A stretch of 64,000 bases of DNA from an uncultured Candidatus Saccharibacteria bacterium (GTDB lineage: Bacteria; Patescibacteriota; Minisyncoccia; Minisyncoccales; Staskawiczbacteraceae): positions 8,123-72,122 of the forward strand of contig CAYIVF010000001.1 in NCBI GenBank assembly GCA_964366875.1, given 5' to 3'. Numbering within the stretch: the first letter of the stretch is position 1; each line of letters starts with the position of its first letter. Shown here piece after piece: positions 5,080 through 46,136 of this stretch. Under the pieces are notes generated by a model. It did no database searches, was not told the DNA's origin, and saw only the letters and a program-made list of their open reading frames with translations. The translations under genes and the position numbers were made by a program.

Positions 5080-5931
5080 TTGCTTGAATTATTTCTCAAA
5101 AGGCGATATTGTAAAAAAAAGATGCTGAGTTTAAAATCAGAAAAATATTTTTTATTAATCGTTAAACCATATAATAATATGAATTCAAAAGAAATTGAGT
5201 CAATTGAAAAAAGATATTTTGAAGAGATTTATTTTTTTGTAGATAAAAATCTTTCGTTCTTCCTTGAAAGATTAAAATCAAAGAATGAAATAAAAAATGA
5301 TTGGCTAAAAATATTCAAAATAACAAGTAGGGCTGCATACAAAAAAGCTTCAGAATTAAATAAAGGCGCCGAAAGAGTGGTGCATAATTTATTTGGTCAA
5401 TATAGGTCATTTGCAGTTAATTCTTCGCCCATTGGTTCGGATTTAATGTTTGAAACTCCAGATGCTTTTATACATTTAGAAGTTAAAACTGCTACCGATT
5501 CTAATCCCGCAGATTTTAAAGGAAAAATACAAATAGCCCAAAATCAGACAACCTATGGAGTTAATCAGACAATAACAGGAAGTCGCTACCATTTTATACC
5601 TAGTTTACCTAAAATTTACTCAAACGGAAAAATCTGTTTGACTTATGTAATTCAAATAATACACGATAATGTAGAAGATTTACCCAAGATTATAATTTTA
5701 CTTTCAATACCCAATGGATTATTAAAGCGCACTTACGGTAATTGTATTAATTCCGGAAAACATTCGAAAAAATTAAACAAGTTAAAATCGAAAGGAGATA
5801 TAAGATTTTTATACAAGAAGGCTAAAAAATTCGAAAATTTAGAAAAAAAACCAAGTAGAATAAAAATTATTTATCCTCAAAGTTACTCTAAAAAATTACT
5901 TGAAGATTTTTTAGGACTGAAGGAATTATAA
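5080..5931 (+). CDS. Hypothetical protein; candidate Type II restriction endonuclease (PD-ExK-like motif). True start may be the internal Met at 5182
   Basis: 283 aa. Contains FETPDAFIHLEVKT (PD...ExK arrangement). Convergent with the adjacent DNA methyltransferase gene, 3' ends overlapping by 6 bp. Confidence 0.35.
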   Translation: MLELFLKRRYCKKKMLSLKSEKYFLLIVKPYNNMNSKEIESIEKRYFEEIYFFVDKNLSFFLERLKSKNEIKNDWLKIFKITSRAAYKKASELNKGAERVVHNLFGQYRSFAVNSSPIGSDLMFETPDAFIHLEVKTATDSNPADFKGKIQIAQNQTTYGVNQTITGSRYHFIPSLPKIYSNGKICLTYVIQIIHDNVEDLPKIIILLSIPNGLLKRTYGNCINSGKHSKKLNKLKSKGDIRFLYKKAKKFENLEKKPSRIKIIYPQSYSKKLLEDFLGLKEL

Positions 5932-7848
5932 TATTTTAATTTTATCACACCTTTTTTTTATAATATTTAGATAATCTTTTTGTAATTCTATACCAATTGA
6001 TTTTCTATTAAGTTCCCTTGCAACCTTTAAGCTTGTTCCACTTCCCACAAATGGATCTAAAACAATGCCGTTTACCGGACAGCAAGCCATTATAGCTTTT
6101 TTTGGTAGTTCTTCAGGAAATATTGCAAAATGGGAATCCTGTAATTTTCCAGTTGCAAAATCCCAAATATCACCAGGATTTTTACCTAACTCATGTGGTT
6201 TTACGGTTTGTAAAACATAATGCTCTTCAGTCATAATTTTATCGTATTTATCATCTTTAATTTCCAAAACTTTTTTTAGTTTTAACCAATCTTCTGGCTT
6301 AGGTAAACATCTTCCGCCTCTATCTGTCCTGAACCAATGTCCAGCAGTATCTTTATAGCCAAATATTTTATCTATTTCTTTACTTGAAATTCCTTTATTT
6401 TTTCTATAATTTTTTATGAAATGTATTATTTCAAGTTCTAAACTACTATCTATTTTGTGTTTTCTTTGTTTAGAATAAAATTCCCCATTAACAGATAATC
6501 TCGCCCCAGGCGAAGCGCCAAGATTTATTTTCTCAGTATTTTTAAATTTACCATTGTATTCATTTTTATTATTACTTGTTTTGTCTTTCCATTTTTCGTA
6601 TTCTTTGACAGATAGCGTTAATGGTAATTCTATTTTTTGATTATTTTTTTCCGTTAGTAAGATTTTTTGTTTAGAGGTTTTTTCTTTTTTCTCCCCATTG
6701 GTTTTATGTGCGATCCTAACAGAATCTAAATCAAAATAATATTCCGGTCTCAAATAACTATTAGGATTTTTAACAAATAAAAATATTGGTTCATAGGTGT
6801 TTGAAAATCTATCTTTTATCGACGAGGGCATTGCATTTGTTTTCCGCCATATTAAAACATTTCTTATTGCCCAACCATTTTTTTGCATTTCCATTGCTAG
6901 TCGAAAAGGGATCATTTGTAGATTCTTATCAACGTATTTATCTCCTATATTTAAAAAATATGCACCATCATCAGTTAAGACCCTTTTTAATTCATTTGTA
7001 ATGTCTATCATTTTTTTGATATATTCTTCTGGTGTTTTTTCATTGCCTATTTGTCCTCCCATTCCATAATCTCTTTGTCCCCAATAAGGTGGAGAGGTCA
7101 CAATGCAATTTATTGATTTGTCGGGTAGCATTTTTAACTTTTCTATAACATCACCAATAATCACTAGTGGTTCGGTATCTTTGGGTAAATCAATAAATTG
7201 ATGTTGGTTTGTTATTTTTTTTTGCAAAACCACTTTCTCTTTTAATTTTTCTAATTCTTCAAATTTTCTTATTATACTAACTACTTTTCCTTGTATTTCT
7301 AATTCTTTTACATAGATTGGTTTAAAATCAGGATTTGCCGGTTGTAGGCGAAATCCGTTTTTCTCTCTATAAATTTTTTTGAGAGTAGTTTCATTGCCAT
7401 TAATAAGCGCAACAACGCTTTCTCCGTTTTCTGCAGTGGATTGTCTTCTAATTATTACCTTGTCGCCGTTGAAGATACCCTCGTCAATCATACTATTGCC
7501 ACTTACCTCTAATGCAAAATTTTCACCGCTTTTGGATAGCAAATTTTTAGGAACTTTTATTTTCTCTGGAACATTGTATGTTATAAGCGGTTCGCCAGCT
7601 GTAATTGTTCCGAGCAAGGGAATCTCTACGAGTTCTGAATTTTTATTTTTTACCAATTCAATGGAGCGCGCCTTGTAATCTGTTTTTTCTAAATATTCTT
7701 TCTCTTTTAGTGTTTTTATGTATTGATGAGCTGTGGGTTTTTTTATTTTAAAATGCTTCGCAATTTCCTTGAGAGAAGGAGAGTAATCTTTTTTGCTAAT
7801 GTATTTTTTAATATAATCTAGAATTTGTTTTTGTTTCGGAGTTAACAT
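5926..7848 (-). CDS. Fusion protein: LexA-like repressor (HTH + S24 autopeptidase) joined to a beta-class DNA methyltransferase (SPPY motif, probably N4-cytosine or N6-adenine)
   Basis: 640 aa. Residues 1-200 align with LexA: IPLLGTITAGEPL (Ala-Gly cleavage site), EVSGNSM (catalytic Ser), TLKKIY (catalytic Lys). The rest carries motif IV (TSPPYWGQRDY) and C-terminal motif I (LDPFVGSGTS), i.e. the beta permutation of amino-MTases. Confidence 0.7.
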   Translation of the reverse strand: MLTPKQKQILDYIKKYISKKDYSPSLKEIAKHFKIKKPTAHQYIKTLKEKEYLEKTDYKARSIELVKNKNSELVEIPLLGTITAGEPLITYNVPEKIKVPKNLLSKSGENFALEVSGNSMIDEGIFNGDKVIIRRQSTAENGESVVALINGNETTLKKIYREKNGFRLQPANPDFKPIYVKELEIQGKVVSIIRKFEELEKLKEKVVLQKKITNQHQFIDLPKDTEPLVIIGDVIEKLKMLPDKSINCIVTSPPYWGQRDYGMGGQIGNEKTPEEYIKKMIDITNELKRVLTDDGAYFLNIGDKYVDKNLQMIPFRLAMEMQKNGWAIRNVLIWRKTNAMPSSIKDRFSNTYEPIFLFVKNPNSYLRPEYYFDLDSVRIAHKTNGEKKEKTSKQKILLTEKNNQKIELPLTLSVKEYEKWKDKTSNNKNEYNGKFKNTEKINLGASPGARLSVNGEFYSKQRKHKIDSSLELEIIHFIKNYRKNKGISSKEIDKIFGYKDTAGHWFRTDRGGRCLPKPEDWLKLKKVLEIKDDKYDKIMTEEHYVLQTVKPHELGKNPGDIWDFATGKLQDSHFAIFPEELPKKAIMACCPVNGIVLDPFVGSGTSLKVARELNRKSIGIELQKDYLNIIKKRCDKIKIL

Positions 7849-8422
7849 ATTGACATGTTTTTTATAAATACTATTATTATATTATACTAACATTTTACTA
7901 ACCTTGAAAGATGTCAACCTGTGGATAACTCAAAAGTTTACAAACTCTACGACCTCACCCAGGAGGGGATTAAAATCATGGAGAGTACGGGAGATTGAGA
8001 AAATGGAGAAGGAGAGGGTTTTTAATCAACTTAACTAGATAAAAATCCCCAATTGGAGATTTTTGCTAAATCATATTTTTGGTAAGGAAAGGAATTATCT
8101 AGTTCAATTTATCGTTACAATTAGCACGAATATAAAAATCCCTTAAATTAAGCCATATCCTTGTATATCTAAAAAATAATTATAATTCAGAATAGAACCT
8201 TCTAATGGCATTCCTTACCAAAAATCCGAAATGGTAAAAATCCTCGGGATAGCCCCTCGGGGTAGTCATTGATGAGCATTTTTTTCCAAGTCCCCCTTGA
8301 CATACAGCTATGAAGAGCGTAAGTTTAATTTAGGAGTTTTCATAGATTAAAGTAAATGAAAAAGAGTATTTTTATTTAGTTCATATTTTGTAAATTGTTT
8401 ATTATTAAGATATAATATAATT
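7849..8422. promoter_or_regulatory. Long AT-rich intergenic region with nested inverted repeats, four AAAAATCC motifs and one perfect DnaA box (TGTGGATAA, 7920-7928)
   Basis: 10-bp perfect inverted repeat aactagataa (8033-8042) / ttatctagtt (8100-8109) enclosing an inner hairpin aaaatc...gatttt; ttacca...tggtaa hairpin around 8210-8232. No ORF of 60 aa or more. Confidence 0.4.
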
Positions 8423-8815
8423 ATGACAAATCAAAAAGATCCACTCGCGTCACTTTTCACGAGCGACGCAAAAGCAATTGATAGGCAGAAGCTAGCAGAG
8501 CTTTTGGAGCCTTTTGTTATTATTGATGAGGGTTCCAAAGAGTTCAGTTTTCACGATACCTTTAATTCCCTGAAAACAAACATGCAAAAAATTGAAATCA
8601 TTCTTTCTGCTGCAAAAGCCAGAGCTCTGTTTTTCAATGAGGTCGATGGATTATCTCCAGGAGATATTATCACTCTTGGTGTTATGCCCGAGGGCAGCGT
8701 GAAGACAAGTCTAAAAAAACTTTTTGATAGGCACAAAATCAAGAAAGATAAAGATGGTAGATATTTTATACCCTCGTACCGTATTTCAGAATTGGTCAAA
8801 CAATTTAATAACTAA
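8423..8815 (+). CDS. Hypothetical protein, member 1 of a four-gene paralogous array
   Basis: 130 aa. C-terminal region (KIEIILSAAKARALFF...DGRYFIPSYRISELV) shares a pattern with the next three genes. Confidence 0.5.
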   Translation: MTNQKDPLASLFTSDAKAIDRQKLAELLEPFVIIDEGSKEFSFHDTFNSLKTNMQKIEIILSAAKARALFFNEVDGLSPGDIITLGVMPEGSVKTSLKKLFDRHKIKKDKDGRYFIPSYRISELVKQFNN

Positions 8816-8826
8816 CTTTTATTATT

Positions 8827-9240
8827 ATGACTACGAACAAAACAATTGAGCAGAGAGTGGAGGAGCTTGAAAAACGGGTGGCTACGCTAGAGAGGGCATC
8901 CTCGCGTGGTGTAGTATCTTCGGCGTTAAAAGCAAAAAAGTCATCTGCGAAAGAATTCCTTATGACAAAAGAACTCAAGACTGAGATACAAAAGACACTT
9001 GCGCTCGCTTATTATCTCGAGTATATGGAGGGATTCCAGAGCTTCAATGTTGCAGATCTTGAAGCTGTATTTCGTTCGGCAAAAGAGAAGCTTCCAAAGA
9101 ATATAAACGATGCAGTGAATAAAAACATTGCCCATGGTCTCATAATGGAAGCGGCAGAAAAAAAGGATAACAAGAAGGCGTGGGTAATTACATCAACGGG
9201 TGAGAAATATGTTGAAGAGGAGTTTAAAAAGTCTAATTGA
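8827..9240 (+). CDS. Hypothetical protein, member 2 of the paralogous array (N-terminal coiled coil)
   Basis: 137 aa. EELEKRVATLER coiled coil, then the shared domain (LALAYYLEYMEG...KKAWVITSTGEKYVEE). Confidence 0.5.
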   Translation: MTTNKTIEQRVEELEKRVATLERASSRGVVSSALKAKKSSAKEFLMTKELKTEIQKTLALAYYLEYMEGFQSFNVADLEAVFRSAKEKLPKNINDAVNKNIAHGLIMEAAEKKDNKKAWVITSTGEKYVEEEFKKSN

Positions 9241-9247
9241 AAAATAT

Positions 9248-9682
9248 ATGATTGAAAAATATATGGATAAGAATCAGTTGATACATAAATTAAACCAAGC
9301 ACAGGGCATTATTTCCGAGTGTCTTGCCGGCCTGCGAGAAGAAGAAATTAAAAAACCGGAAAAAAACGAGGAGAAGAGGGAAAAAAGTTTAACTATAGAG
9401 ATAGATTTTAGCAAGCCAATTCGTCCCTTTTTTAGGGAGTACACAGAGGGTAAAAGCGGACCTAAGAAATTCACCTTACTCGTTGCATATTCAACAAAAG
9501 GTGATATGTCGCAGTCAGTTTCGTTAAATGAGATCGAAAAACAGTGGAAAAAGATGAAAAGTTTGTTGGGTGGCGATTTCAATCGTTTTTATTCATCTCA
9601 AGCGAAAGATAAAGATTGGGTAGATTCGCCAAAGCAGGGTTTATACGTATTACGTCCGAATTGGAGGGAGGTTCTTAATTAG
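9248..9682 (+). CDS. Hypothetical protein, member 3 of the paralogous array
   Basis: Start chosen at the first ATG after the upstream stop (the track ORF begins at 9200). Shared domain FTLLVAYSTKG...KQGLYVLRPNWREVL. Confidence 0.45.
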   Translation: MIEKYMDKNQLIHKLNQAQGIISECLAGLREEEIKKPEKNEEKREKSLTIEIDFSKPIRPFFREYTEGKSGPKKFTLLVAYSTKGDMSQSVSLNEIEKQWKKMKSLLGGDFNRFYSSQAKDKDWVDSPKQGLYVLRPNWREVLN

Positions 9683-9685
9683 TTT

Positions 9686-10399
9686 ATGAATTTGCCACAA
9701 AATATAACAATTTTTCTCAAACAGTTCCCGCTTAAAGATATGAGTGGCGAGCAGGTTTTTGTGGCAATCTGCTATTATCTCGCAGGCGCGAAAAAGAGTG
9801 TTGAAGTTGAGGTACAAGATATAAAAAGTAAATGGAGTAAAACTCTAATAGGCAAAACTTACAATCCGGCATTTGCATATCGCGCCCAAAGATATTTAAA
9901 CCCTTGTGGCAAGGGGAGGGTATGTTTGACCGATGAAGGAATTGAATATATTGAGCCTTTGATTCAACCGACATTATTGTCTAGAATCGGACTCACTGTG
10001 TTCAAAAAGGGCAGTGCTTATTCATTTGATAAGTTTCTGCGCGGCATTTTTAAGAAAGCAACGAAAAATGTTGGTATTGCAGATACATATGTAGCCGGAA
10101 ACATTTTTGACAACCTTTTAGATGAAATTCCTAAGACTGTGCCGATTCAGTTTCTTTACGGGAGTGATACTGGCGGATTTACTTCCAAGTCTATACGATT
10201 TGCCAAAGAATATAATTTTCAAATGAAAGAGAGTAGGCAATTTCACGACCGTTTTATCATAGTTGATGGCAGGGGCTATATCATAGGCCCATCATTAAAG
10301 GATGCGGCAGACAAGAAACCATCCACACTAGTTGTTTTAAGCGATTCTGATTCCAGAAAGTTAGTTAGTCTTTTTTTAGATTTATGGAGCGGCAAGTAA
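9686..10399 (+). CDS. Hypothetical protein, member 4 of the paralogous array, with a C-terminal PLD-like (HxR...D...G.S) motif
   Basis: 237 aa. N-terminal shared domain (VFVAICYYLAGAKK...KGRVCLTDEGIEYIE). C-terminal FHDRFIIVDGRGYIIGPSL matches the HxKx4Dx6GS spacing of phospholipase-D family nucleases with K replaced by R. Confidence 0.4.
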   Translation: MNLPQNITIFLKQFPLKDMSGEQVFVAICYYLAGAKKSVEVEVQDIKSKWSKTLIGKTYNPAFAYRAQRYLNPCGKGRVCLTDEGIEYIEPLIQPTLLSRIGLTVFKKGSAYSFDKFLRGIFKKATKNVGIADTYVAGNIFDNLLDEIPKTVPIQFLYGSDTGGFTSKSIRFAKEYNFQMKESRQFHDRFIIVDGRGYIIGPSLKDAADKKPSTLVVLSDSDSRKLVSLFLDLWSGK

Positions 10400-10480
10400 A
10401 GATTAAGGAGGAATGTAAGGTGCTTGAAGTCATGCTTCAGTATCTGCTAGAGCCCGAGCTTGAATAATCCTGAATATGAC

Positions 10481-10501
10481 TTGGCCGACAAAAAAATTAG
10501 G
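10481..10501 (+). repeat. Repeated intergenic module, half-copy E1 (ttggccgacaaaaaaattagg)
   Basis: Near-identical to 10939-10960, immediately upstream of a gene start. Confidence 0.6.
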
Positions 10502-10509
10502 AGAAATTT

Positions 10510-10935
10510 ATGAAAAATTTAGATAGAAGTTTAGACAGCATAAAAGAGGCTAAAAAATTTTCTCTGGAAATGAAAATTTCTGCTTTACAGGAACTTATTT
10601 TGCAGAGATTTCAAGCACTTACAACGATTAGCTCGATAAGTTTTGCCGTTGCTGGAATTATAATTTCAACCAGAGGCGATCTAATCCGGAATGAAAAGCT
10701 TGCTTTTTTCTCGGCGGCCTTATTTATCGTTATTGCTATTACCAGCTTTGGACGGCATCTATGTTTGATTCGTAGCGACATCAAGGCCATAGCTAAAAAG
10801 ATAAAAGATTTACCAGGCGAAGATTGGAGCAAGCCGCTTGAAGAAAAAGAGTTTAAGGCCGATTGGTGGCCAGAAATATTGTATATCATTTTAGTTATTG
10901 GTGTTTTGTTATTCGGCTTATCTTTTTGTTTATGA
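10510..10935 (+). CDS. Small integral membrane protein (three predicted TM helices)
   Basis: 141 aa with hydrophobic stretches ISSISFAVAGIIIST, FFSAALFIVIAITSF, ILYIILVIGVLLFGLSF. Confidence 0.5.
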   Translation: MKNLDRSLDSIKEAKKFSLEMKISALQELILQRFQALTTISSISFAVAGIIISTRGDLIRNEKLAFFSAALFIVIAITSFGRHLCLIRSDIKAIAKKIKDLPGEDWSKPLEEKEFKADWWPEILYIILVIGVLLFGLSFCL

Positions 10936-10938
10936 AGA

Positions 10939-10996
10939 TTTGGCCAACAAAAAAATTAGGTCGAAAAATTAATTGAGAAATAATAAAAAATATGGC
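10939..10996 (+). repeat. Repeated intergenic module, full copy E2 (ttggccaacaaaaaaattagg + gaaaaattaattgagaaataataaaaaatatggc)
   Basis: First half matches E1 (10481-10501); second half matches E3 (11708-11740). Confidence 0.6.
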
Positions 10997-11159
10997 AAAG
11001 AAAATAAAAGAATCTGAAGGTTTTATAGTTAACTGGGGGAAGAAAAAAAGTAGAATGGTATTTTTCGTACGTTATAAAGATTTAGTTCCTCCAACTCCGG
11101 TTGATCCAATAGACCTTCCGAGGTTTCTTATTGATAAGATTAAGAAAATCAAAAAATAA
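10992..11159 (+). CDS. Small hypothetical protein (55 aa, MAKKIKESEGFIVNWGKKKSRMVFFVRYKDLVPPTPVDPIDLPRFLIDKIKKIKK)
   Basis: ORF found by manual translation directly after module E2; below the 60-aa track cutoff. Confidence 0.3.
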   Translation: MAKKIKESEGFIVNWGKKKSRMVFFVRYKDLVPPTPVDPIDLPRFLIDKIKKIKK

Positions 11160-11172
11160 AAAAGAGAAAAAT

Positions 11173-11724
11173 ATGATTGGTTTTTGGCACCCATTTGGTC
11201 CTCACGGGGGAGAAACGCGGAAACAAATTATTGAACGAAAACGTAAAGAAATTCAAAAGAACAGATGGACCCTTTGGTCTTTTCAGTACAGAACGGATAA
11301 AACATTAAATCAATGGATTGCTCAAATTAAAAAGAATAAGGGTCGTGTTTTTGTTTTCTGTTCTGACAGCGAGGGCGCGCGCGATCCAAAAGGTAAGAAA
11401 TTTTACGCTAAGCAATTTAGGTATCCTACATCTAGTACATGGAACAATATTCCATCTGCAATTGGTATCCCACATCCCTTCGGTAAAAAACCCCTCGCTT
11501 GCGCCTTCAAAGTAAAAAGCATTTATAATCCAGAAGTAATCAGAATACCGAAAGGGATTAAATGGCTTTGTGTGGGAGAAAATAAGTGGAGAGAGGATAA
11601 ATTACCCACCAGGGGAGAATATTTGTTAAAATCAGATGGCAGGTGCAAATTAAGGAAGGTTTATAAAATTTTAGAGTTAGTTTTTCCTTACTTGGTAGTT
11701 ATAAAAAGTCAAAAAATTAATTGA
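11173..11724 (+). CDS. Hypothetical protein
   Basis: Track ORF 11131-11724 overlaps the preceding small ORF; the internal Met (MIGFWHPFGPHGG...) is the more likely start. No recognisable domain. Confidence 0.4.
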   Translation: MIGFWHPFGPHGGETRKQIIERKRKEIQKNRWTLWSFQYRTDKTLNQWIAQIKKNKGRVFVFCSDSEGARDPKGKKFYAKQFRYPTSSTWNNIPSAIGIPHPFGKKPLACAFKVKSIYNPEVIRIPKGIKWLCVGENKWREDKLPTRGEYLLKSDGRCKLRKVYKILELVFPYLVVIKSQKIN

Positions 11725-12098: not shown

Positions 12099-12167
12099 TG
12101 ACATCAGCTTTTATAATTATTATAATTTAAAAATCATAGCACACCTTAACCAAGGAAAGGAGGTGAG
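12099..12167 (+). promoter_or_regulatory. Consensus sigma70 promoter (TTGACA-17-TATAAT) followed by consensus Shine-Dalgarno AAGGAGGTGA
   Basis: TTGACA 12099-12104, TATAAT 12122-12127, AGGAGGTGA 12159-12167. No convincing ORF immediately follows. Confidence 0.5.
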
Positions 12168-12600
12168 TATAAAAGCACGACACAAAAGCACGACCAATTC
12201 GTAGGTGGGTTGTCGGAAGGGCAGAGAAGAGGCACTGTTTTTACAGCTTCTCTAACCCCTTTGCGAAGGATCGACCCTATGTCCAAGAAGATCAAGCGTA
12301 TGTCGTCATTGACGCCCGAAGAAAGAGAGTTTATCTGTTCCCACGCGCTCCCTGATGGGGACACTGTAGGCGGCAATCATGTCTACCGTGTCCGCCAGCT
12401 CTTTCACGGAAAGTTTGGCTTTCGGGTCGGCGATGCGACGGTACGTCGTCTTCTGACACAGAAACACTGGCGCAACGGAAATGGTTCTGGCAGCGGGGCG
12501 CAGCCGCCTCGCTACAAGCGGCCGAGTGTTGCGCTTTTGATCCATTAGGGATCATCGCCTTTCTTTTTTCGCATGAGCTGCGGCAAACCCTGTCGTAGCT
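12150..12600. other. GC-rich island of about 450 bp with overlapping ORFs on both strands; possible degraded foreign gene or mobile-element remnant
   Basis: Abrupt rise in GC relative to flanks. Track ORFs 12210-12548(+), 12306-12545(-) and 12331-12555(-) overlap one another. The + frame has an HTH-like stretch (FGFRVGDATVRRLL). Confidence 0.3.
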
Positions 12601-16060: not shown

Positions 16061-16468
16061 ATGATTGAAATAAACAATCTTACAGGTTTTTCTGTGGATA
16101 AAAAATTTTTCACAGGGGTTGCAAAAAAAGTTTTAAAAGGCGAAAATAGAGGAAGAGAAAAAATATCTCTGGCTTTTGTTAATAAAGAAGAGATAAAAAA
16201 ACTTAACAAAAAATTCCGAAAGAAGAACGAAGCTACTGATGTTCTATCGTTTGAATTAAAAGAAAAGGATTTTTTAGGCGAAATCGTTATTTGTCCGGAA
16301 ATTGTAAAAGAAAACGCCACCAAGCGCAAAACGGCCGCAAAGCAAGAAATGGCAAAAGTATTTATACATGGTATTTTGCACTTGCTGGGGTATGAGCACG
16401 AAAAAACGAACAAGGATGCGGAAATAATGGAAAAAAAACAAGAAAAGTATTTATCAAAGCTCAGCTAG
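16061..16468 (+). CDS. ybeY: Endoribonuclease YbeY (rRNA maturation)
   Basis: 135 aa. HGILHLLGYEHE zinc-binding motif. Confidence 0.85.
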   Translation: MIEINNLTGFSVDKKFFTGVAKKVLKGENRGREKISLAFVNKEEIKKLNKKFRKKNEATDVLSFELKEKDFLGEIVICPEIVKENATKRKTAAKQEMAKVFIHGILHLLGYEHEKTNKDAEIMEKKQEKYLSKLS

Positions 16469-18622: not shown

Positions 18623-18693
18623 AAACAACACAAAATGTCCTAATTTCGGGGCATTTTTTATTGTTTTGCGTCTGATGGGACATGGGTCGCACT

Positions 18694-18702
18694 TATCCAC
18701 AG
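18694..18702 (+). promoter_or_regulatory. Perfect DnaA box TTATCCACA upstream of nrdD
   Basis: Exact 9-mer consensus about 30 bp upstream of a TTGACC-16-TAAAAT promoter-like sequence (about 18729-18760). Confidence 0.45.
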
Positions 18703-18934
18703 ATTTAATATACAAAGTGGGGCTTGACCTGCTTTTTGCTTGGAGTAAAATATAGAAATGGCTTCGCCATTTATGTAATTAATCGCTCGGTTGGAATAAA
18801 AGTTTACTTTTATTCCTTCCTTACTCATAATTATAGTAATGCATTAGACCTCTTACTTAAAAATTTTTTATCCCGAAGATTTTTAAGTTTTAAAATTAAT
18901 AAAAGCCGTGAGGCATTTTTTTGTCCCCAATTTC

Positions 18935-21900
18935 ATGACACCAAGAAAAGAAAAAATAAAAAATCACATTGAAAAAGTACAGAAAAGAGATGGAAGAATC
19001 GCTGATTTTGAGCAGCAAAAAATAACTGACGCTATTTTTAAAGCAATCACTGTAGCTGACCAGGGCGATGGAGTAAAATCAAAAAGAGCGTCGGAAAAAG
19101 TTGCGCAAATTCTAAACAGAAGATTCAAAATAGGAGAAATCCCCAGCATTGAACAAATACAAGACATTGTAGAAGAAGTTTTGATACTAGAAGGCCTAGT
19201 TGATACGGCTCGCGCATATATTCTTTATAGAGAGCAGAGAAGAAGGATCAGAGAGATGGGTACGATTTCTGATGAGTCTTCAGAAAAAATTGATAGCTAT
19301 CTAAAAGAGCTTGATTGGCAGATAGCTGAAAACGCCAACATGACATTTTCTTTGCAGGGACTGAACCAATATGTGGGTTCATTCATTTCTAAAAAATATT
19401 GGCTAAACAAGATTTATCCAAAAGAAATAAGGGAGGCAGCAGCTTCAGAAGATTTTCATATCCATAATTTAGAGCTGCTTGCACCGTATACATTTTTCGG
19501 GAGGGAAGTTATAATTGTTAAAAAAAATAACAGAATAAAATTATCCTCCTTTAAAGATATATATGAAGAGATCGAACAACAAGAAATTTTACTGAATGAA
19601 AAAGACGGTGCTTGGGCAAAATACCCCGAGGGTTTATTTATACTAGATAATGATGGATGGGTTAAGGTTTCCCGGTTAGTGAGAAAAAATAAAGAGAGAG
19701 AAATGAGATTTATAAAATCTGAACAAGGTAGAAGCGTTATTGTTACCGATAACCATCCGTTTATAATAAAAAGAAACGATAAAGAAATAGAAATAGAATC
19801 TAAAGATGTAAAAGAATCTGACCTAATTTTTTCCGCCGATATCCGTTATCTTTTAAAAAATGAAGGTCTTTTTTCGAAGAAATATATATACTTGGCCGAA
19901 GAATTGATTAATAAAAAACACAATGAATTTTTTCTTGAGGGATTTGACTGGCAGGATTTTGTCAATAATTGGGGCGGGTCATTGCAGGCAAAGGGGACAC
20001 TTAGCGTTTCTAACGGAGCCAACAGCCTGGATAATTATTTTGAATTGACAGAAGATATTGGATATTTAGTCGGTATTTTCATAGCAGAGGGAAATTATCA
20101 TAGCTGGAAACTGCAGATTACCAACAGCGACGAAGAAATTATTAAAAAAATTCAAAGGATAGGCGCTTCTATCGGAGTAAGGTCATATATTAACGAAAAG
20201 GAAGGCGCCAAAGCAGTTACCTTTAATTGCAGTACTCTAAAAATGATTTTTGAAAAAGTTTTTCAGATAAAGGAGCTCAGTAAAAATAAAAATTTGCCGC
20301 CAGATATATTAACTTACAATACAGATTTTATAAAAGGCATTATCGCTGGCATCATTGACGGAGATGGCAGTGTCCGCTCGCATAAAAGCAAGCATGACGA
20401 TTCCTTGTCGCAGGTTTTGATTAGAGTCTCTTCGCGAACTTTGCTGGAACAACTATCAGTTCTTCTTCAGTTTTTCGGGATTGTGGCAAGAGACAGAATT
20501 AGTAGCGAAGATATTGGAAAGGTAAATATTTTTAGAGGGAAAGAAATTATACAAAATTATCCGATATACGGACTTTGTTTTTCAAAAAAGCAGGGAATTA
20601 ATTTTCCTTCATTTAAATATCAGAAAGCGGCTGCTACTTCAAAACATTGGAGGGCAGAAGAATACGGATGGAATAAAGTTTTAAATAATAAATTTACCAC
20701 AGTTGCTGATGAAGAAATTTTTGATATTACCACCGAATCTGGCACTTTTATTTGCAATGGACTGTTGGTGCACAACTGCGCGGGGTGGGACTTATACGAT
20801 TTTTTAAAAAGAGGATTTGGCGGAGTTTCGGGAAAAATAGAATGCAAACCTCCAAAACATTTGGGCGTGGCTTTAAGCCAACTGGTAAACGTTTTATATA
20901 CCTTGCAGGGAGAAACAGCGGGAGCCAACGCTGTTTCTAATTTTGATACTCTTTTAGCTCCGTTCATCAGGTACGACCATTTAACATACAAAGAAGTAAA
21001 GCAGGCAATGCAGGAATTTTTATTCGGCTGCATGGTGCCAACTCGCGTTGGTTTTCAAACCCCGTTTTTAAATGTATCTTTGGATATAAAACCGCCCACA
21101 TTTCTTGCAAAACAGCCGGTAATTATTAAAGGAGAACCGCAGAAAGAAACTTATGGCGAGTTTCAGGAAGAGATGAACATGTTTATCCGCGCATTTTATG
21201 AGGGTTTAATGGAGGGAGACGCGAAAGGCAGGCCGTTTACTTTTCCCATACCAACCGTTTCTATCGGTAAAGATTTTGACTGGAATAATTCTAATTTAGA
21301 TGCCTTGTGGGAAGCGACTGCAAAATATGGCATAAACTATTTTTCAAATTTTATACATTCAGATATGAGTCCAGAGGATGCTCGCTCGATGTGTTTGGAT
21401 TCCAAAGAAGAAATTTTGATAAGAAATTCCAAAAAAATTAAAAGAATGTCTATTAAGGAGACAGCTGATAACTATAAAGTTGGCGATTTTGATAGAGAAG
21501 GGTGGGCAGAATGCGAAAAGGAAAAAAACCTGGAAGTTTTATCTTTAAATCCAGACAACTTAAAAACAGAATGGTCTCCGGTAAAAAGATTTTTCAGAGT
21601 TTTTGATGATAAGGCTGTCGAAATTTTTACAGAGGATGGTAAAAGCGCTGTTTTTTCGCAAAAGCATCCTATGCCAGTTTTAACAGAGAGAGGTATTGAA
21701 ATGAAATGGTCAAAAGACATAGAAAAAGGAGATTATCTTCTTTCTATAAAAAAAGCAGAAGATGTTTTAGCAAAGGAGTATCAAAAAATAAATGACTTGG
21801 ACTTAGACAATGATTTGTCGTCTATTTTAGGATATTTTATTGCCGACGGAAATTATCTTTTTGAAAGTAGGAGAAGATATAAACATTATGGAGAACCAAG

Positions 21901-24793
21901 AGGGATGCAGTTTACATTTAAAACTGGAGACAAAGAAAACATAAAAACAATAAAAGGTTTAGTTAAAAAAGTATTTGGCATAGATTGTAAAGAAAAACAA
22001 GACCCAAGGTACAATACTTATTATTTATATATTTATAATACAGAGCTTGCAAGAAGGTTGCATAATGCAGGATTTAAGAAATACGGCAGATTACCTCAAG
22101 TCATATTTAATTCTCCCATAGAAGTTATCAGAAAATTTTTAGAGTTTCATTTTAAGGGTGATGGTTATAAAAAGAGGGGTGAAATTCATATCAATGATTT
22201 GGAACTATCAAGAGATTTAGTTTTATTATATTCTTTGACCGGTCAACCAGTGACCTATAAATTAAGGAAGAACAGCCAGGTTATACGTTTACAACATTCA
22301 AAATCTAAAATAAAAAAGAATAATGGCTGGTTAAATAACCCAATTCTATCAGAAAGAGTGCCGGGGTGGATGGGATTTTCAACATTTAAAGTGCCCGGTC
22401 TTACAAAATCGAGAATGGTAGGATTTGATGTATTAGAAAAATATAATGCGCACACAGAAAATAGTCTAAAAATTAAAAATAGCGACATTTATGTTAGCAG
22501 AGTTAAAAATGTAAGCACAAAAAATTATAAAGAATTGAAAGAGTTTTATGATGTAGAGTTGGAAAAAAATCATTTATTTTTGCATTCCTTGGGACAAGTG
22601 TCTTTTAATTGTTGCCGGCTTCGTTTAGACAACAGGGAACTTTACAAAAGAGGCGGCGGATTGTTTGGTTCGGCCCCCTTAACCGGTTCAATCGGGGTTG
22701 TTACGATTAACATGCCCAGGATTGGATATTTATCAAAAACTAAAAAAGATTTTTTTGAAAGATTGGGCCACTTGATGGATTTAGCAAAAGAAAGTTTGGA
22801 AATTAAAAGAAAGGCGCTGGAGAACTTTATGGATAAAGGCCTTTATCCTTATTCTCGCCACTATTTAGACGGAGTTAAGCTTTTAAGAAACTCATATTTT
22901 GGAAATCATTTTTCTACTATCGGGCTGATAGGAATGAATGAAATGCTTTTGAATTTTCTAGAAGAAAACATAGCTTCAAAAAATGGCAAGAAGTTTGCTT
23001 TAGAAGTTTTAGATTTTATGAGAGAGAGGATGATAAAATATCAAGAAGAAACAGGCAATTTATATAACTTGGAGGCGACTCCGGGCGAAGGAACAAGCTA
23101 CAGGCAGGCAAAAACAGACAAAGAAAAGTATCCGGATATTATTACGGCAGGCACCGAAGAGGTTCCATATTATACGAATTCAACTCATTTGCCGGTGGAT
23201 TATACTACAGATCCCTTTGAGGCGTTAAAACTGCAAGATGAACTTCAAACAAAATATACTGGCGGCTGCATAGAGGGGGGAAATAAGGTTTTAACAGATA
23301 AAGGATTGTTGCTCATTGAAGATATTGTGAAAAATTTTGATGAATTAAAACCTATCAAAGCGTTAAGCTATAACAAAGACCAAAAAAATAGCGAATGGGA
23401 TAAAATTTTGGAAGCAGTAAAAATTGATGTAAAAAAACATAATAAAATCAAGATAAAAGGAGAAAAAAACTTAGATATTGTTACATCTGATTGGCATCCT
23501 TTTTTTGTTCTGAAAAGATTTAAGCCAAATCCCGCTTGCCCTATTTGCCACACAGAAACATTTACTCTTAAAGGATTTGCTGGTCATATTAGATGGTATC
23601 CAGATTGCGGTAGAAAATATCAGGATTTTCCCAAGTACCATGTAATAGAAAAAAGAGCAGATGAATTAAAGGTGGGCGATTATATCCTGCAGAATTCATA
23701 TAATTTATATCCTGAAAAAGAAACAGAGCTCAATAATGATTTAATGTGGCTCATTGGATTTTTTATCGGTGACGGCTCTATCTCAAAATATATTGATAAT
23801 AGGGGCGGAAACAATTTAGAGAGGCATAAAATTAGGTTTTTTAGCGAGCACAAAGAAGCATTAAATAAAATAGTAGAAATCCTTAATAAATATTTTTCTG
23901 CTGAAGTAAAAATTATTAAAAACGATAAAAGAAGCGAAAAACTTTTAGAGGTTGCAAGTTCTAAAAAAGATATAGTAGATTTCTTTTTCAAATATGGATT
24001 TTGGGCAGGTGAAAAATCCAGCCGCATATTTATTCCTGATAAAGTGAAAAACAATATCAATAAAGAAAATATTTTTTCTTTATTATCTGGTTTAGCAGAC
24101 AGCGATGGGCATATAAGCAAACGTGATGGAGATTTTGAATATTATTCTATTTCCCAAAAATTGGCTGATGATATTTTAGAAATATGTTCTATTGCCGGAA
24201 TTATGTTCAGCAAGGCTATAAAAAAGACTAAAAGAAAAAACGAATTAGACATCTGGAGGATAAGAATACCCGCCTATGAAGTTACGAAAATAAAATCCCA
24301 CCTAACAAACACTATTCATCTTTTAAGAATTAAAGAGAATTTATCAAACAGAAAGAAACGTTATTTGCCCGTTGTGAGAGTAAAAGAAGTTTCTAAAGTT
24401 GACGTAAAAGATAATCAATTTTACGACTTGATGACAGAAAATAACCACAATTATTTGGCAGGAAAAGATAGTTTAGTATTTGTCCACAATACCGTCTGCC
24501 ACTTGTTTTTAGGAGAGAAAATTTCTGACCCCCAAATGGCAAAAAACTTAGTCAGAAAAGTTTTTGAGAAATTCCATTTGCCGTATATAACGCTTACACC
24601 AACTTTTTCAATTTGTCCTACGCATGGCTATTTATCAGGAGAGCACTTTGAATGCCCGCAATGTACGGTAAAGCAGCCCTGCGAGGTTTATTCAAGAGTA
24701 GTGGGGTATATAAGGCCGGTTCAGCAGTGGCATAAAGGCAAAAAGCAAGAATACAAAGAAAGAAAAGAGTATAAGATGCCAGCTGCAGTATAG
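18935..24793 (+). CDS. nrdD: Anaerobic (class III) ribonucleoside-triphosphate reductase interrupted by three inteins
   Basis: Track ORF 18908-24793 (1961 aa); start more likely MTPRKE at 18935. ATP-cone N-terminus; extein segments match NrdD blocks (HIHNLE, CAGWDL...KPPK, TPF, GGGLFGS...IGVVTINMPRI, YYTNSTHL, C-terminal CxxC...CPxC glycyl-radical/Zn region). Estimated extein total about 720 aa. Confidence 0.85.
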   Translation: MTPRKEKIKNHIEKVQKRDGRIADFEQQKITDAIFKAITVADQGDGVKSKRASEKVAQILNRRFKIGEIPSIEQIQDIVEEVLILEGLVDTARAYILYREQRRRIREMGTISDESSEKIDSYLKELDWQIAENANMTFSLQGLNQYVGSFISKKYWLNKIYPKEIREAAASEDFHIHNLELLAPYTFFGREVIIVKKNNRIKLSSFKDIYEEIEQQEILLNEKDGAWAKYPEGLFILDNDGWVKVSRLVRKNKEREMRFIKSEQGRSVIVTDNHPFIIKRNDKEIEIESKDVKESDLIFSADIRYLLKNEGLFSKKYIYLAEELINKKHNEFFLEGFDWQDFVNNWGGSLQAKGTLSVSNGANSLDNYFELTEDIGYLVGIFIAEGNYHSWKLQITNSDEEIIKKIQRIGASIGVRSYINEKEGAKAVTFNCSTLKMIFEKVFQIKELSKNKNLPPDILTYNTDFIKGIIAGIIDGDGSVRSHKSKHDDSLSQVLIRVSSRTLLEQLSVLLQFFGIVARDRISSEDIGKVNIFRGKEIIQNYPIYGLCFSKKQGINFPSFKYQKAAATSKHWRAEEYGWNKVLNNKFTTVADEEIFDITTESGTFICNGLLVHNCAGWDLYDFLKRGFGGVSGKIECKPPKHLGVALSQLVNVLYTLQGETAGANAVSNFDTLLAPFIRYDHLTYKEVKQAMQEFLFGCMVPTRVGFQTPFLNVSLDIKPPTFLAKQPVIIKGEPQKETYGEFQEEMNMFIRAFYEGLMEGDAKGRPFTFPIPTVSIGKDFDWNNSNLDALWEATAKYGINYFSNFIHSDMSPEDARSMCLDSKEEILIRNSKKIKRMSIKETADNYKVGDFDREGWAECEKEKNLEVLSLNPDNLKTEWSPVKRFFRVFDDKAVEIFTEDGKSAVFSQKHPMPVLTERGIEMKWSKDIEKGDYLLSIKKAEDVLAKEYQKINDLDLDNDLSSILGYFIADGNYLFESRRRYKHYGEPRGMQFTFKTGDKENIKTIKGLVKKVFGIDCKEKQDPRYNTYYLYIYNTELARRLHNAGFKKYGRLPQVIFNSPIEVIRKFLEFHFKGDGYKKRGEIHINDLELSRDLVLLYSLTGQPVTYKLRKNSQVIRLQHSKSKIKKNNGWLNNPILSERVPGWMGFSTFKVPGLTKSRMVGFDVLEKYNAHTENSLKIKNSDIYVSRVKNVSTKNYKELKEFYDVELEKNHLFLHSLGQVSFNCCRLRLDNRELYKRGGGLFGSAPLTGSIGVVTINMPRIGYLSKTKKDFFERLGHLMDLAKESLEIKRKALENFMDKGLYPYSRHYLDGVKLLRNSYFGNHFSTIGLIGMNEMLLNFLEENIASKNGKKFALEVLDFMRERMIKYQEETGNLYNLEATPGEGTSYRQAKTDKEKYPDIITAGTEEVPYYTNSTHLPVDYTTDPFEALKLQDELQTKYTGGCIEGGNKVLTDKGLLLIEDIVKNFDELKPIKALSYNKDQKNSEWDKILEAVKIDVKKHNKIKIKGEKNLDIVTSDWHPFFVLKRFKPNPACPICHTETFTLKGFAGHIRWYPDCGRKYQDFPKYHVIEKRADELKVGDYILQNSYNLYPEKETELNNDLMWLIGFFIGDGSISKYIDNRGGNNLERHKIRFFSEHKEALNKIVEILNKYFSAEVKIIKNDKRSEKLLEVASSKKDIVDFFFKYGFWAGEKSSRIFIPDKVKNNINKENIFSLLSGLADSDGHISKRDGDFEYYSISQKLADDILEICSIAGIMFSKAIKKTKRKNELDIWRIRIPAYEVTKIKSHLTNTIHLLRIKENLSNRKKRYLPVVRVKEVSKVDVKDNQFYDLMTENNHNYLAGKDSLVFVHNTVCHLFLGEKISDPQMAKNLVRKVFEKFHLPYITLTPTFSICPTHGYLSGEHFECPQCTVKQPCEVYSRVVGYIRPVQQWHKGKKQEYKERKEYKMPAAV
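19502..20776 (+). mobile_element. Intein 1 in nrdD with LAGLIDADG homing-endonuclease domain (N-terminal boundary uncertain)
   Basis: Ends ...NGLLVHN followed by Cys+1 (CAGWDL). Block B-like TDNHPF. LAGLIDADG motifs IGYLVGIFIAEGNY and IKGIIAGIIDGDGS. The first residue is not the expected Cys/Ser. Confidence 0.6.
21392..22609 (+). mobile_element. Intein 2 in nrdD with LAGLIDADG homing-endonuclease domain
   Basis: Begins CLDSKEEILI after ...ARSM; ends ...VSFN followed by Cys+1 (CRLRLD aligns with NrdD GCRSF). LAGLIDADG motifs ILGYFIADGNY and KFLEFHFKGDGY. Confidence 0.65.
23267..24490 (+). mobile_element. Intein 3 in nrdD with LAGLIDADG homing-endonuclease domain and an internal zinc ribbon
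   Basis: Begins CIEGGNKVLTDKG after ...KYTGG; ends ...SLVFVHN followed by Thr+1. LAGLIDADG motifs LMWLIGFFIGDGSIS and LLSGLADSDGHIS. Cys cluster CPICHTE...CGRK. Confidence 0.65.
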
Positions 24794-26902: not shown

Positions 26903-27094
26903 TGAAACCCAGACCTACTCTAGATAAAAGCAAGCAGTATCTCCTAAATCAGCTCGCTCTCGGAAACCTTAATCGCCAAGATTCTGGCTGTTTTCTCTTT
27001 TAAGAGAGATTTCGGCGTTAGCAATCCTTGAACTGCCAAACATTAGCCTACTTTCGTTTTTTATTATACTAAAAAATACAATTATTGGAAGTCA

Positions 27095-27160
27095 GTGTAA
27101 AAAAAGAAGGGGTTGCTTGCATTGTTAGTGCAAGACAATCCCTTTTTGTCGCCGACTTCA
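27095..27160. terminator. Bidirectional terminator-like hairpin (aggggttgcttgcattgttagtgcaagacaatccct flanked by A-run/T-run)
   Basis: Nested stems gggg/ccc and cttgca/tgcaag with aaaaaaa upstream and ttttt downstream. Confidence 0.5.
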
Positions 27161-27212
27161 AGAAATCAAGTGTTAATGGCTCAAGAGAGCCAATGACTCA
27201 AGATTTCAAGAG
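27150..27212 (-). repeat. Array of five CTTGA motifs in the 3' end/3'UTR of GC-rich gene B
   Basis: gacttcaagaaatcaagtgttaatggctcaagagagccaatgactcaagatttcaagagtc. Confidence 0.5.
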
Positions 27213-28080
27213 TCAGACTGCGGGAGGAAGGCGGAGGCCGAACCATAGCTGCCGTCGGCATTGCTAATCCAGCGCGCGCCGAACCTGATCTTGCCATCGT
27301 CGAACTTGAAGAAAGGCGCGAGCCCGAACTGACCATCACCCCCGTCAGAAAACTCAGCACCAGCGCAGTCGATCCAGAGATCGTCGTAGTGCTGTAAGCG
27401 TTCCGGATGCGTCAGAAGCATGCAGGCGACCGCGAAGGGATCGAGACCGAACTGGTAAGAGCTCATGACCTTGCGTGCCCTTCGCACGGACTTGCCAGCG
27501 TGGAGCTTGCCGAACTGGCAGGCAACAACAAGAATGTCATAGTCCTTCTGCTCGTTGCCGAGCTTGTCAAAGGCTTTGACGTTCTTTTGATGCTGACGCA
27601 GGTACTGCGGACCAAGCTTGCCCTCGCGGTAGTTGTAGAACTTGCCGTCGCGGGTTTGCTTGATGAGGTCAAGGACCTTTTGCAGTGCCTCGCCGTAGGT
27701 CTGAGCGATCTTCTGCCACCTTGTGATAGCGAACCACCCCTCGGCATTGGCTGGAAGCGGCTGTTCTGCCAGCTTCTCATCGGCGAACCCGACGCCCGAA
27801 ATTAGCTGACGCAGGCGGTTGGTCTGCTCGGTGATGCCCTTGGGCTTGTAGCCCGAGAGGTAGCCGTAGCTGGACCCAACCTCCTCGTTGGCGAACTGGT
27901 TGGATACCGAGAGCCTCTGAATGGAGGCCACGATGTCGGCTTGGAACACGTCGCCGTTCGCGAAGAGCTTCTGAAGCCCATCCTTGTCGAGATTGACTTC
28001 GGTGAGCGCCTTGTCCCCGGCGTCCTCGACAAACCTTTTGTACTGCTTGACCTGACCGGACGTGATCGACAATGTCGTCA
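27206..28080 (-). CDS. Hypothetical protein B of the GC-rich paralogous pair
   Basis: Track ORF 27206-28147. Likely start MTTLSIT (complement of 28078-28080), preceded by AAGGAG at a 7-nt spacing. High GC; paralog of gene A. Confidence 0.55.
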
Positions 28081-28297
28081 TCGTCAAACTCCTTTTTCCT
28101 TGAGGAATACACTCGAGATTTCCAGAATTCCGCTGGAACGGACTCATCCTCCTTTAAGGCGAGTATTAAAAACACTAACATTTAGTCAATATTCTTAATA
28201 CTCGCCTCAATTTATTCTATTAAAGAACAATACCTATATTATATCGAGAACTAGAGTTTATGTCAAGGGGAGCGTATCAAATTGATAATTATATGAT

Positions 28298-46022: not shown

Positions 46023-46031
46023 TTATCCACA
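46023..46031 (+). promoter_or_regulatory. Perfect DnaA box TTATCCACA in a hairpin-forming intergenic region
   Basis: Exact consensus 9-mer within ccacagg...cctgtgg inverted repeat. Confidence 0.35.
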
Positions 46032-46136
46032 GGTGAAACTCGCAGGAACCTGTGGTACAATAATTAAATTCTTAATTTTAAGAGAAAGTATTTTTGTACT
46101 TTGACTTTTCGTTTGTTTTTTGATAGTTTGAGAGGA

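Follow-up and report, generated by a model that had tools for sequence, protein, structure and literature searches.

Why should a DNA methyltransferase carry an entire LexA at its N-terminus, and what would the LexA part do there? The question is raised by a 640-aa protein encoded on the minus strand of contig CAYIVF010000001.1, from an uncultured Candidatus Saccharibacteria bacterium, within a 64-kb stretch of DNA that we analysed as a whole (hereafter the window; protein coordinates were re-derived by translation). An initial annotation of this stretch had proposed that the first ~200 residues are a complete LexA, that the protein is a methyltransferase with the motif order of the beta class, and that its gene (M) pairs with a convergent endonuclease gene (R) in a Type II restriction-modification (R-M) system. 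In our view the fusion is best explained as a self-cleaving autorepressor that would raise the methyltransferase level upon RecA activation, with damage-triggered protection as the outcome; we hold this reading to be reasonably probable, cleavage and repression both being predicted from sequence.

The domain composition was as proposed: the LexA_DNA_bind, Peptidase_S24 and N6_N4_Mtase profiles all match in a single frame (Table 1), the last of them over its full length. The N-terminal part scores 184.6 bits against the NCBIfam equivalog model TIGR00498 ('lexA'), whose cut-off is 110.95, and residues 2–195 align end to end with solved LexA structures (best with T. maritima LexA, 3k2z, E = 2.5e-33; E. 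coli LexA, E of about 1e-24). Ala84–Gly85, Ser119 and Lys157 fall in register with A84–G85, S119 and K156 of E. coli LexA, and the N-terminus reads as a complete LexA that is apparently cleavage-competent. In the AlphaFold model (mean predicted local distance difference test, pLDDT, 79.9), three folded modules are recognized: the winged helix-turn-helix (HTH; residues 1–65, with helices at 4–20, 26–33 and 37–49), the S24 domain (73–193) and the methyltransferase (225–640). A low-confidence linker (196–215) connects the folded modules; the linker as a whole, ~30 aa in the window protein, differs in length among homologues. Since motif IV precedes motif I, the methyltransferase belongs to the beta class; a target-recognition insert lies between the two motifs, and PADLOC matches the enzyme to MTase_II with 254 bits. 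The SPPY form of motif IV is typical of N4-cytosine enzymes, and N4-cytosine is probably the target base.

A trivial explanation would be that a frameshift, a missed stop codon or a chimeric assembly join has fused lexA to a separate methyltransferase gene. We found no evidence favouring it. Two contigs assembled independently, from replicate 0.1-µm samples of Hainich groundwater (ENA ERZ1292632 and ERZ1292626), encode the identical 640-aa product, and a search of 5.8 billion proteins returned ~30 clusters, with at least 28 full-length homologues, that have all three domains at 43–80% identity (sources JGI, ENA, NCBI and Logan). A further 60 fusions are uninterrupted open reading frames (ORFs) in metagenome DNA. 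Identity in two assemblies together with the recurring uninterrupted ORF rules the artefact out, its probability being negligible, and the fusion is genuine. Two of the homologues, one from a Patescibacteria and one from an Omnitrophica metagenome-assembled genome (MAG), are labelled 'transcriptional repressor LexA' by NCBI.

The fusion is also common. We scanned metagenome contigs with the LexA part alone as query and took the ORFs from the DNA itself at 80 loci of more than 551 relatives. At 60 of these 80 loci the LexA module runs into a long C-terminal extension (428–888 aa from the match in complete ORFs), at four the ORF is already beyond LexA length where the contig ends, and 11 encode a stand-alone LexA of 194–237 aa. 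In all, about 64 of the 80 nearest metagenomic relatives are fused to methyltransferases, which belong to at least four unrelated Pfam families. LexA_DNA_bind and Peptidase_S24 are both present in 60/60 fusions; the C-terminal family is N6_N4_Mtase in 39 of the 60, the Dam-like MethyltransfD12 in 14 fusions, the gamma-class Eco57I, N6_Mtase or MmeI type in about 10–11, and the C5 DNA_methylase in one. When residues 1–200 were used to search 1.84 billion representatives exhaustively with HMMER, the picture was similar: 44 of the 50 best matches exceed 235 aa and have the LexA part at their N-terminus. Among reference genomes, fusions were found in the Patescibacteria lineages Paceibacterota, Saccharibacteria, Levybacteria, Berkelbacteria, Ryanbacteria and Taylorbacteria, and also in Omnitrophica and one Elusimicrobia MAG; the matches from Firmicutes and others are ordinary LexA proteins of 192–208 aa. 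The initial annotation had called the architecture unusual. A full LexA is indeed joined to the methyltransferase, but the term understates what is a widespread class with an operator cassette of its own.

In a rough neighbour-joining tree of the window methyltransferase family, the fusions form at least 3–4 separate clades with stand-alone enzymes between them, and domain identities are uncoupled between the two parts of relatives: in P0007, for instance, the methyltransferase is 79% identical to that of the window and the LexA part 45%. In P0112 and P0116 the LexA parts are as low as 28% identical to the window LexA. Residues A84, G85, S119 and K157 are nevertheless invariant in 20/20 and 60/60 fusions (alignments A2 and A3, respectively). 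Because this invariance extends over diverged fusions, unrelated methyltransferase families included, it speaks for selection on cleavage itself.

The same observation bears on a simpler alternative, in which the LexA module would be a dimeric DNA-binding domain only, like the HTH of the SsoII and EcoRII methyltransferases, self-cleavage being vestigial. Signal-free methyltransferase–repressor fusions are an established design (R-M reviews), and the position of the operator described below would suit plain autorepression. But residues that are no longer used are expected to drift, whereas the Ala-Gly bond, the Ser, the Lys and the surrounding S24 motifs are unchanged in more than 60 fusions on at least four methyltransferase families, down to the 28% identity mentioned above. 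We therefore regard a static autorepressor as unlikely.

We then considered the partner gene. It had been annotated as a 283-aa ORF (5080–5931) convergent with M, overlapping it at the 3' ends. Convergence and overlap (6 nt) were correct; the start was not. This ORF begins at TTG, and all 120 homologues listed, typically 250 aa long, match from Met34 onward only (most cover 88% of the query), which is why we place the R gene at 5179–5931. The homologues are assigned to the precomputed Pfam family PF27366 (MwoI_N). A sequence search with the R family against solved structures gave no match; fold comparison alone succeeded, and supported a BglI/SfiI-type PD-(D/E)xK restriction endonuclease fold at 16–17% identity to BglI and SfiI. 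Of the PD-(D/E)xK motif originally proposed, the ExK half is retained. The Asp of 'TPD' varies among homologues and precedes the very strand that bears ExK, and we rejected it as the acidic residue. D88 (in GSD) and K103 are invariant, position 101 being E or D; D88, conserved where the TPD Asp is not, is thus the better catalytic candidate.

The same M and R genes are found together at several loci (L001, L002, L003, L007, L164 and L165), many contigs carry both, and PADLOC labels the pair MTase_II plus REase_II. By these sequence features the locus is a Type II R-M system with a MwoI/BglI/SfiI-type endonuclease and a beta-class methyltransferase, as had been suggested. The overlap of the two 3' ends is a palindrome, and no terminator-like site was found between the genes. 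Site avoidance, considered as a pointer to the recognition sequence, gave uninformative counts for BglI and SfiI sites in the window: 5 for GCCN5GGC (8.3 expected) and 0 for GGCCN5GGCC (0.4 expected). The pair also exists with other control parts. In a Woesearchaeota genome (L164) it is again arranged tail-to-tail with a 6-nt overlap and the methyltransferase has no LexA; stand-alone methyltransferases, many of them from DPANN archaea, are 74–82% identical to the window methyltransferase domain. In L165, the LexA cassette that accompanies this R-M pair is a different one, with a TTTCGGT operator. Note that in L164 a 51-aa ORF (L164:2859–3014, plus strand) with a strand-helix-helix pattern overlaps the start of M; its Pfam matches are all sub-threshold (RepB-RCR_reg, DUF6364), and it may encode a small ribbon-helix-helix controller in place of the LexA of the bacterial versions.

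If the LexA module regulates M, a cognate operator should lie at the M promoter. A tandem direct repeat, GTTAGTAaaatGTTAGTA, overlaps the predicted -10 hexamer and is unique within the window, weaker matches to the 18-nt repeat being at chance level. Most of the 80 related loci have a period-11 repeat at the equivalent position, with the -35 region on one side and the -10 on the other, and the repeat unit varies with the LexA recognition helix. The unit TTCGG goes with a helix of the H-[QE]-H type in 27/27 loci; TTCTA (17 loci) goes with H[YFH][YH] or N-H-Y, and H-[QE]-H occurs in 0/17 of these; TTCGT goes with Q-Y in two loci (L006 and L021); and TTAGT goes with HQY in one, the window itself, whose recognition helix region reads PTAHQYIKTL. 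These counts come from related loci and are phylogenetically non-independent, but such co-variation is what cognate operator/repressor pairs would show.

The predicted control appears to be confined to M. No copy of the operator was found upstream of R in the window within 3 mismatches, nor near the R gene of 29 other loci within 2 mismatches, and no motif is common to the sequences upstream of R in the window and in L007. Host-type SOS boxes (TTCGGT-N5-TTCGGT) gave chance-level matches only in the window. On the L003 contig two fusions lie 6 kb apart and their operators differ (the palindrome CCGACCAtttGGTCGG versus a TTTCGGT direct repeat), so control would be private and free of cross-talk. 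Finally, DNA similarity of the window to other fusion loci ends exactly at 7930, just beyond the TTATCCACA box, and the window, L004 and L005 have a near-identical 5' leader despite differing methyltransferases. Given these boundaries and the distinct cassette of L165, the mobile unit appears to be a promoter/operator segment of ~82 bp plus the LexA module, each copy regulating its own promoter only.

These data also speak to the possibility that the protein is the global SOS repressor of the cell with a methyltransferase attached, SOS regulation being its main job and the R-M link secondary. It passes the TIGR00498 cut-off, homologues are named as LexA repressors, no second LexA is encoded within the 64-kb window, and the TTTCGGT repeat of many fusions is that of stand-alone Patescibacteria LexA genes (L022, L027 and L065). 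By contrast, the operator variant of the window is found at its own promoter only (over the ~64 kb of genome inspected), one contig harbours two fusions with different operators, and the same R-M pair bears LexA modules that are only 45% identical. The module travels with R-M genes in defence islands, and its diversified operator specificity suits private control. A global repressor is, in our estimation, quite improbable.

The remaining elements of the control region were assigned as follows. The TTGACA hexamer at 7912–7917 is doubtful as the -35 of M, as it lies 25 nt from TATAAT, too far for standard sigma-70; the actual -35 is probably a weak TTTCAA beside the operator. The promoter-like site on the opposite strand is near-consensus and faces away from M; it would have the operator at +1 to +18. 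GTCAA is present in the 45 nt before the start codon of 32/79 loci, compared to 3.4% of background windows, and a mirror arrangement of this promoter-like site is seen in L036, L039, L060, L064 and L075. A conserved divergent partner gene was sought and rejected, the upstream neighbours being heterogeneous, with a 130/137-aa gene pair shared by L023 only; the site may serve promoter competition or give rise to a small RNA.

The TTATCCACA box at the upstream edge of the cassette has four exact copies in the window (0.57 expected), at 7920–7928 (-), 16093–16101 (-), 18693–18701 (+) and 46023–46031 (+). Those at 18693 and 46023 are intergenic and just upstream of promoter-like hexamers, before a 1961-aa ORF and an ORF at 46101, respectively. 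The motif TTATNCACA lies at most 160 nt upstream in 46/81 LexA or fusion loci, in either orientation and with any operator type. Within the promoter cassette, the box may serve to bind DnaA or some other factor.

Table 1. Features of the LexA–methyltransferase locus (positions in the window)
Feature	Position	Strand	Basis or remark
M gene, 640-aa LexA–S24–methyltransferase fusion	5926–7848	-	ORF; three Pfam domains in one frame; identical in L001 and L002
LexA winged HTH, residues 2–61	7666–7845	-	PF01726 LexA_DNA_bind, 49 bits
Ala84–Gly85, predicted self-cleavage bond	7594–7599	-	Aligned to E. coli A84–G85
Peptidase S24 domain, residues 77–190	7279–7620	-	PF00717, 103 bits
Candidate catalytic Ser119	7492–7494	-	Invariant in fusion alignments
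Candidate catalytic Lys157	7378–7380	-	Invariant in fusion alignments
S24-to-methyltransferase linker, residues 196–225, FEELEKLKEKVVLQKKITNQHQFIDLPKDT	7174–7263	-	AlphaFold pLDDT <50 at residues 196–215
Beta-class N6_N4 DNA methyltransferase domain, residues 246–632	5953–7113	-	PF01555, 169 bits, profile positions 1–221 of 221
Motif IV TSPPYW, residues 251–256	7081–7098	-	Sequence
Motif I LDPFVGSGTS, residues 597–606	6031–6060	-	Sequence
Predicted operator, tandem direct repeat GTTAGTA-aaat-GTTAGTA, 11-bp period	7885–7902	-	Sole exact copy in 64 kb
TATAAT, predicted -10 of M promoter, overlapping second operator repeat	7881–7886	-	Sequence; conserved in related loci
TTGACA	7912–7917	-	Next to TTATCCACA
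TTATCCACA, identical to DnaA-box consensus	7920–7928	-	Abuts TTGACA; upstream edge of conserved cassette
Opposite-strand promoter-like site TTGACA-16-TATTAT, 11/12 matches	7850–7877	+	-35 is the conserved 'GTCAAT' just 5' of M start codon
R gene, 250-aa restriction endonuclease, MwoI/BglI/SfiI family	5179–5931	+	
Catalytic candidate D88	5440–5442	+	
Catalytic candidate E101	5479–5481	+	
Catalytic candidate K103	5485–5487	+	
TTATAA, 6-nt tail-to-tail overlap with both stop codons	5926–5931		Sequence

The tail-to-tail arrangement recurs among the fusions. We collected the 45 genes located at most 40 bp downstream of a fusion: 38/45 are convergent, with 3' ends that overlap or lie at most 32 bp apart. 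At least 22/45 belong to recognizable restriction or nuclease families (MvaI_BcnI, 10; BsaWI, 5; EcoRV, 2; BglII, 1; R.Pab1, 1; HNH, 2; plus EndoVII/His-Me and NERD), five are second methyltransferases and the remainder have no Pfam match, as is common for restriction enzymes.

The course of events that we propose is the following. The fusion would dimerise via its S24 domain, and the dimer would sit on GTTAGTA-N4-GTTAGTA over its own -10, thereby repressing M and setting the methyltransferase level. RecA, activated by single-stranded DNA that arises through damage or self-restriction breaks or is supplied by incoming or phage DNA, would stimulate cleavage of Ala84–Gly85 by Ser119/Lys157. The DNA-binding domain would then be split from the S24–methyltransferase part, the promoter derepressed and the methyltransferase increased. 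R has no operator, and no terminator separates the two converging genes; vigorous transcription from the M promoter would therefore continue into R on the opposite strand and reduce its expression, by collision or by an antisense effect. The net result would be a Type II counterpart of restriction alleviation, and M-before-R timing on entry into a new host is a further predicted outcome. The scheme includes a feedback loop, in which self-restriction breaks would activate RecA and so raise the methyltransferase; unbalanced R-M activity does induce the SOS response (R-M review).

An opposite outcome has to be weighed, in which cleavage would expose degradation signals, the S24–methyltransferase fragment would be destroyed, methylation would lag and the endonuclease would kill the damaged or infected cell, as in abortive infection or toxin-antitoxin systems. 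The cleavage fragments of E. coli LexA are protease substrates, and the R gene, lacking operator control, would stay on. R-M systems are also described as acting like toxin-antitoxin modules that induce SOS when unbalanced (R-M review). Cleavage would, however, derepress synthesis of fresh fusion protein at the same time, and the methyltransferase is modelled by AlphaFold as a separate folded module behind a long linker. Such a suicide switch strikes us as improbable.

Several points weigh against a RecA-responsive autorepressor that protects the cell. For every member of the class, we infer cleavage and DNA binding from sequence. No recA was found within the 64-kb window, and the presence of RecA in the genome rests on general knowledge of the group. 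Recent descent from cellular LexA could account in part for the conserved catalytic residues, and degradation of the cleaved S24–methyltransferase fragment, as for the E. coli fragments, could reverse the outcome. The likely -35 being the weak TTTCAA, the strength of the M promoter is uncertain. Lastly, R is co-directional with M in 7/45 loci as well as in L003; derepression there would raise R too, so that 'M up, R down' is not universal.

A broader proposal, which we put forward tentatively and with somewhat less than even confidence, is that LexA–methyltransferase cassettes constitute a modular mode of Type II R-M control across the Candidate Phyla Radiation. A portable ~82-bp promoter/operator and a cleavable LexA would have been grafted repeatedly on unrelated methyltransferases and diversified into non-cross-reacting operators, methylation rising on RecA activation and restriction falling through tail-to-tail transcription.

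The surroundings of the fusions are those of defence loci. Upstream neighbours are heterogeneous defence-island genes (AbiJ, OLD-TOPRIM, ThsB-TIR and Vsr, for example). On the 523-kb Patescibacteria-type contig of L003, multiple defence genes lie within 10 kb (L003:8208–17791): AbiEi/AbiEii, a GIY-YIG gene, a LexA–methyltransferase followed by a co-directional MwoI-type R, a NERD protein and a second LexA–methyltransferase (507 aa). In the window, the R-M system and lepB are separated by a run of small plus-strand genes without Pfam match (8423–11724; 130, 137, 144/160, 237, 141 and 197 aa), which has the appearance of a small defence island; for the 237-aa protein (9686–10399), PADLOC gives a match to its candidate defence family PDC-S05 (E = 4.5e-16). 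The 130/137-aa pair has homologues upstream of, and divergent from, another LexA–methyltransferase in L023, the only locus to share the pair.

The intergenic region upstream of the cassette (574 bp; window 7930–8422) has no ORF and, beyond 7930, no similarity to other fusion loci except for 53 nt that match L035. G+C-rich inverted repeats are present in this region, e.g. ccgaggggctatcccgagg near 8245–8262, and a terminator-like hairpin lies just past it (8441–8472, minus strand), within the start of the 8423–8815 ORF. G+C content is 0.26–0.32 across 5–8 kb of the window (flanks ~0.38); over a background of ~0.36 it peaks at 0.54 at 27001–28000, over a minus-strand ORF (27206–28147), and at ~0.42 at 12146–12555. 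No tRNA or Rfam element, sought as a mark of integration sites, was matched in the whole window. Two very large plus-strand ORFs, 18908–24793 (1961 aa) and 40728–46010 (1760 aa), stand out for a small-genome organism.

Among known systems, the dual-function methyltransferase repressors (M.SsoII, M.Ecl18kI, M.EcoRII, M.MspI and M.ScrFIA) are of the closest kind. They too have an N-terminal DNA-binding domain on a Type II methyltransferase and an operator that overlaps the methyltransferase promoter, and their autoregulation indirectly sets the R:M ratio; for the fusion, binding is predicted. By contrast, theirs is a short HTH without signal input, whereas the window module is a ~200-aa LexA with intact S24 domain and cleavage site. 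The genes of SsoII and Ecl18kI are divergent with competing promoters; the window R is convergent, overlaps M at its 3' end and has no operator, and the fusion operator is a direct repeat of 11-bp period, unlike those systems. The window protein thus shares the N-terminal fusion and the promoter-overlapping operator of the SsoII/EcoRII type, and has neither its short homologous HTH nor its divergent R.

Compared to E. coli LexA, domain order, cleavage bond, Ser/Lys dyad and (as predicted) autoregulated promoter are alike, and the fusion has all the sequence features of a LexA. It differs in being a 640-aa protein joined to an enzyme instead of a stand-alone ~200-aa repressor with a multi-gene regulon: its operator is private to one promoter in the 64 kb inspected, and specificity has diversified among paralogous cassettes. 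A direct-repeat LexA motif has been reported for several phyla including Patescibacteria, according to a citation within PMC7739468.

Other comparisons are looser. In Type I restriction alleviation, ClpXP degrades HsdR after DNA damage, and we propose the analogy that self-restriction is cut when damage or recombination makes unmodified sites; there, however, the restriction subunit is proteolysed post-translationally, whereas the fusion would act by transcriptional derepression via repressor self-cleavage. In EcoRI and Eco29kI, converging transcription likewise lowers and delays the endonuclease on establishment (R-M review), but from reverse promoters inside co-directional genes, whereas the window M and R converge whole and interference between them is a prediction. 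WYL-type regulators also make anti-phage defence genes respond to DNA-damage signals; these transcription factors are proteins in their own right that sense a ligand through the WYL domain, and they are neither autoproteolytic nor fused to an effector. The known BglI, SfiI and MwoI systems have no LexA-fused methyltransferase, and M and R of the window are neither separated nor flanked by a small HTH gene of the C-protein type.

The R-M reviews of 2013 and 2025 cover four modes of Type II control, namely promoter methylation, methyltransferase–repressor fusions, antisense transcription and C proteins. All four are listed by name in the later review; the earlier one discusses them under other headings. 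Neither describes damage-responsive control of independent Type II enzymes, and 'LexA' has 0 occurrences in the 2025 review of R-M biology. Full-text searches together with these reviews, a coverage from which the primary paper on the Patescibacteria SOS response fell outside, returned no description of a LexA–methyltransferase fusion. The protein studied here would be a methyltransferase–repressor fusion whose repressor is a signal-responsive autoprotease.

What would such a design mean for its hosts? Since a Type II restriction enzyme works without its methyltransferase, cells have to be safeguarded against self-cutting. That risk peaks when the system becomes established in a new host and when repair or recombination has left sites unmodified. 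A RecA-responsive methyltransferase–repressor, if true, adds a signal-responsive mode of control and ties R-M homeostasis to the SOS pathway. The modular-cassette proposal, if true, would give independent Type II enzymes their first 'restriction alleviation' mechanism that responds to damage, and would provide a natural set of orthogonal LexA/operator pairs. The co-varying helices and operators form a natural series for studying the evolution of repressor specificity, and a source for building orthogonal damage-inducible switches. Patescibacteria are tiny-genome episymbionts, mostly without CRISPR and reliant on R-M systems. As the fusion design is common among them, it bears on defence and DNA uptake in a large part of bacterial diversity.

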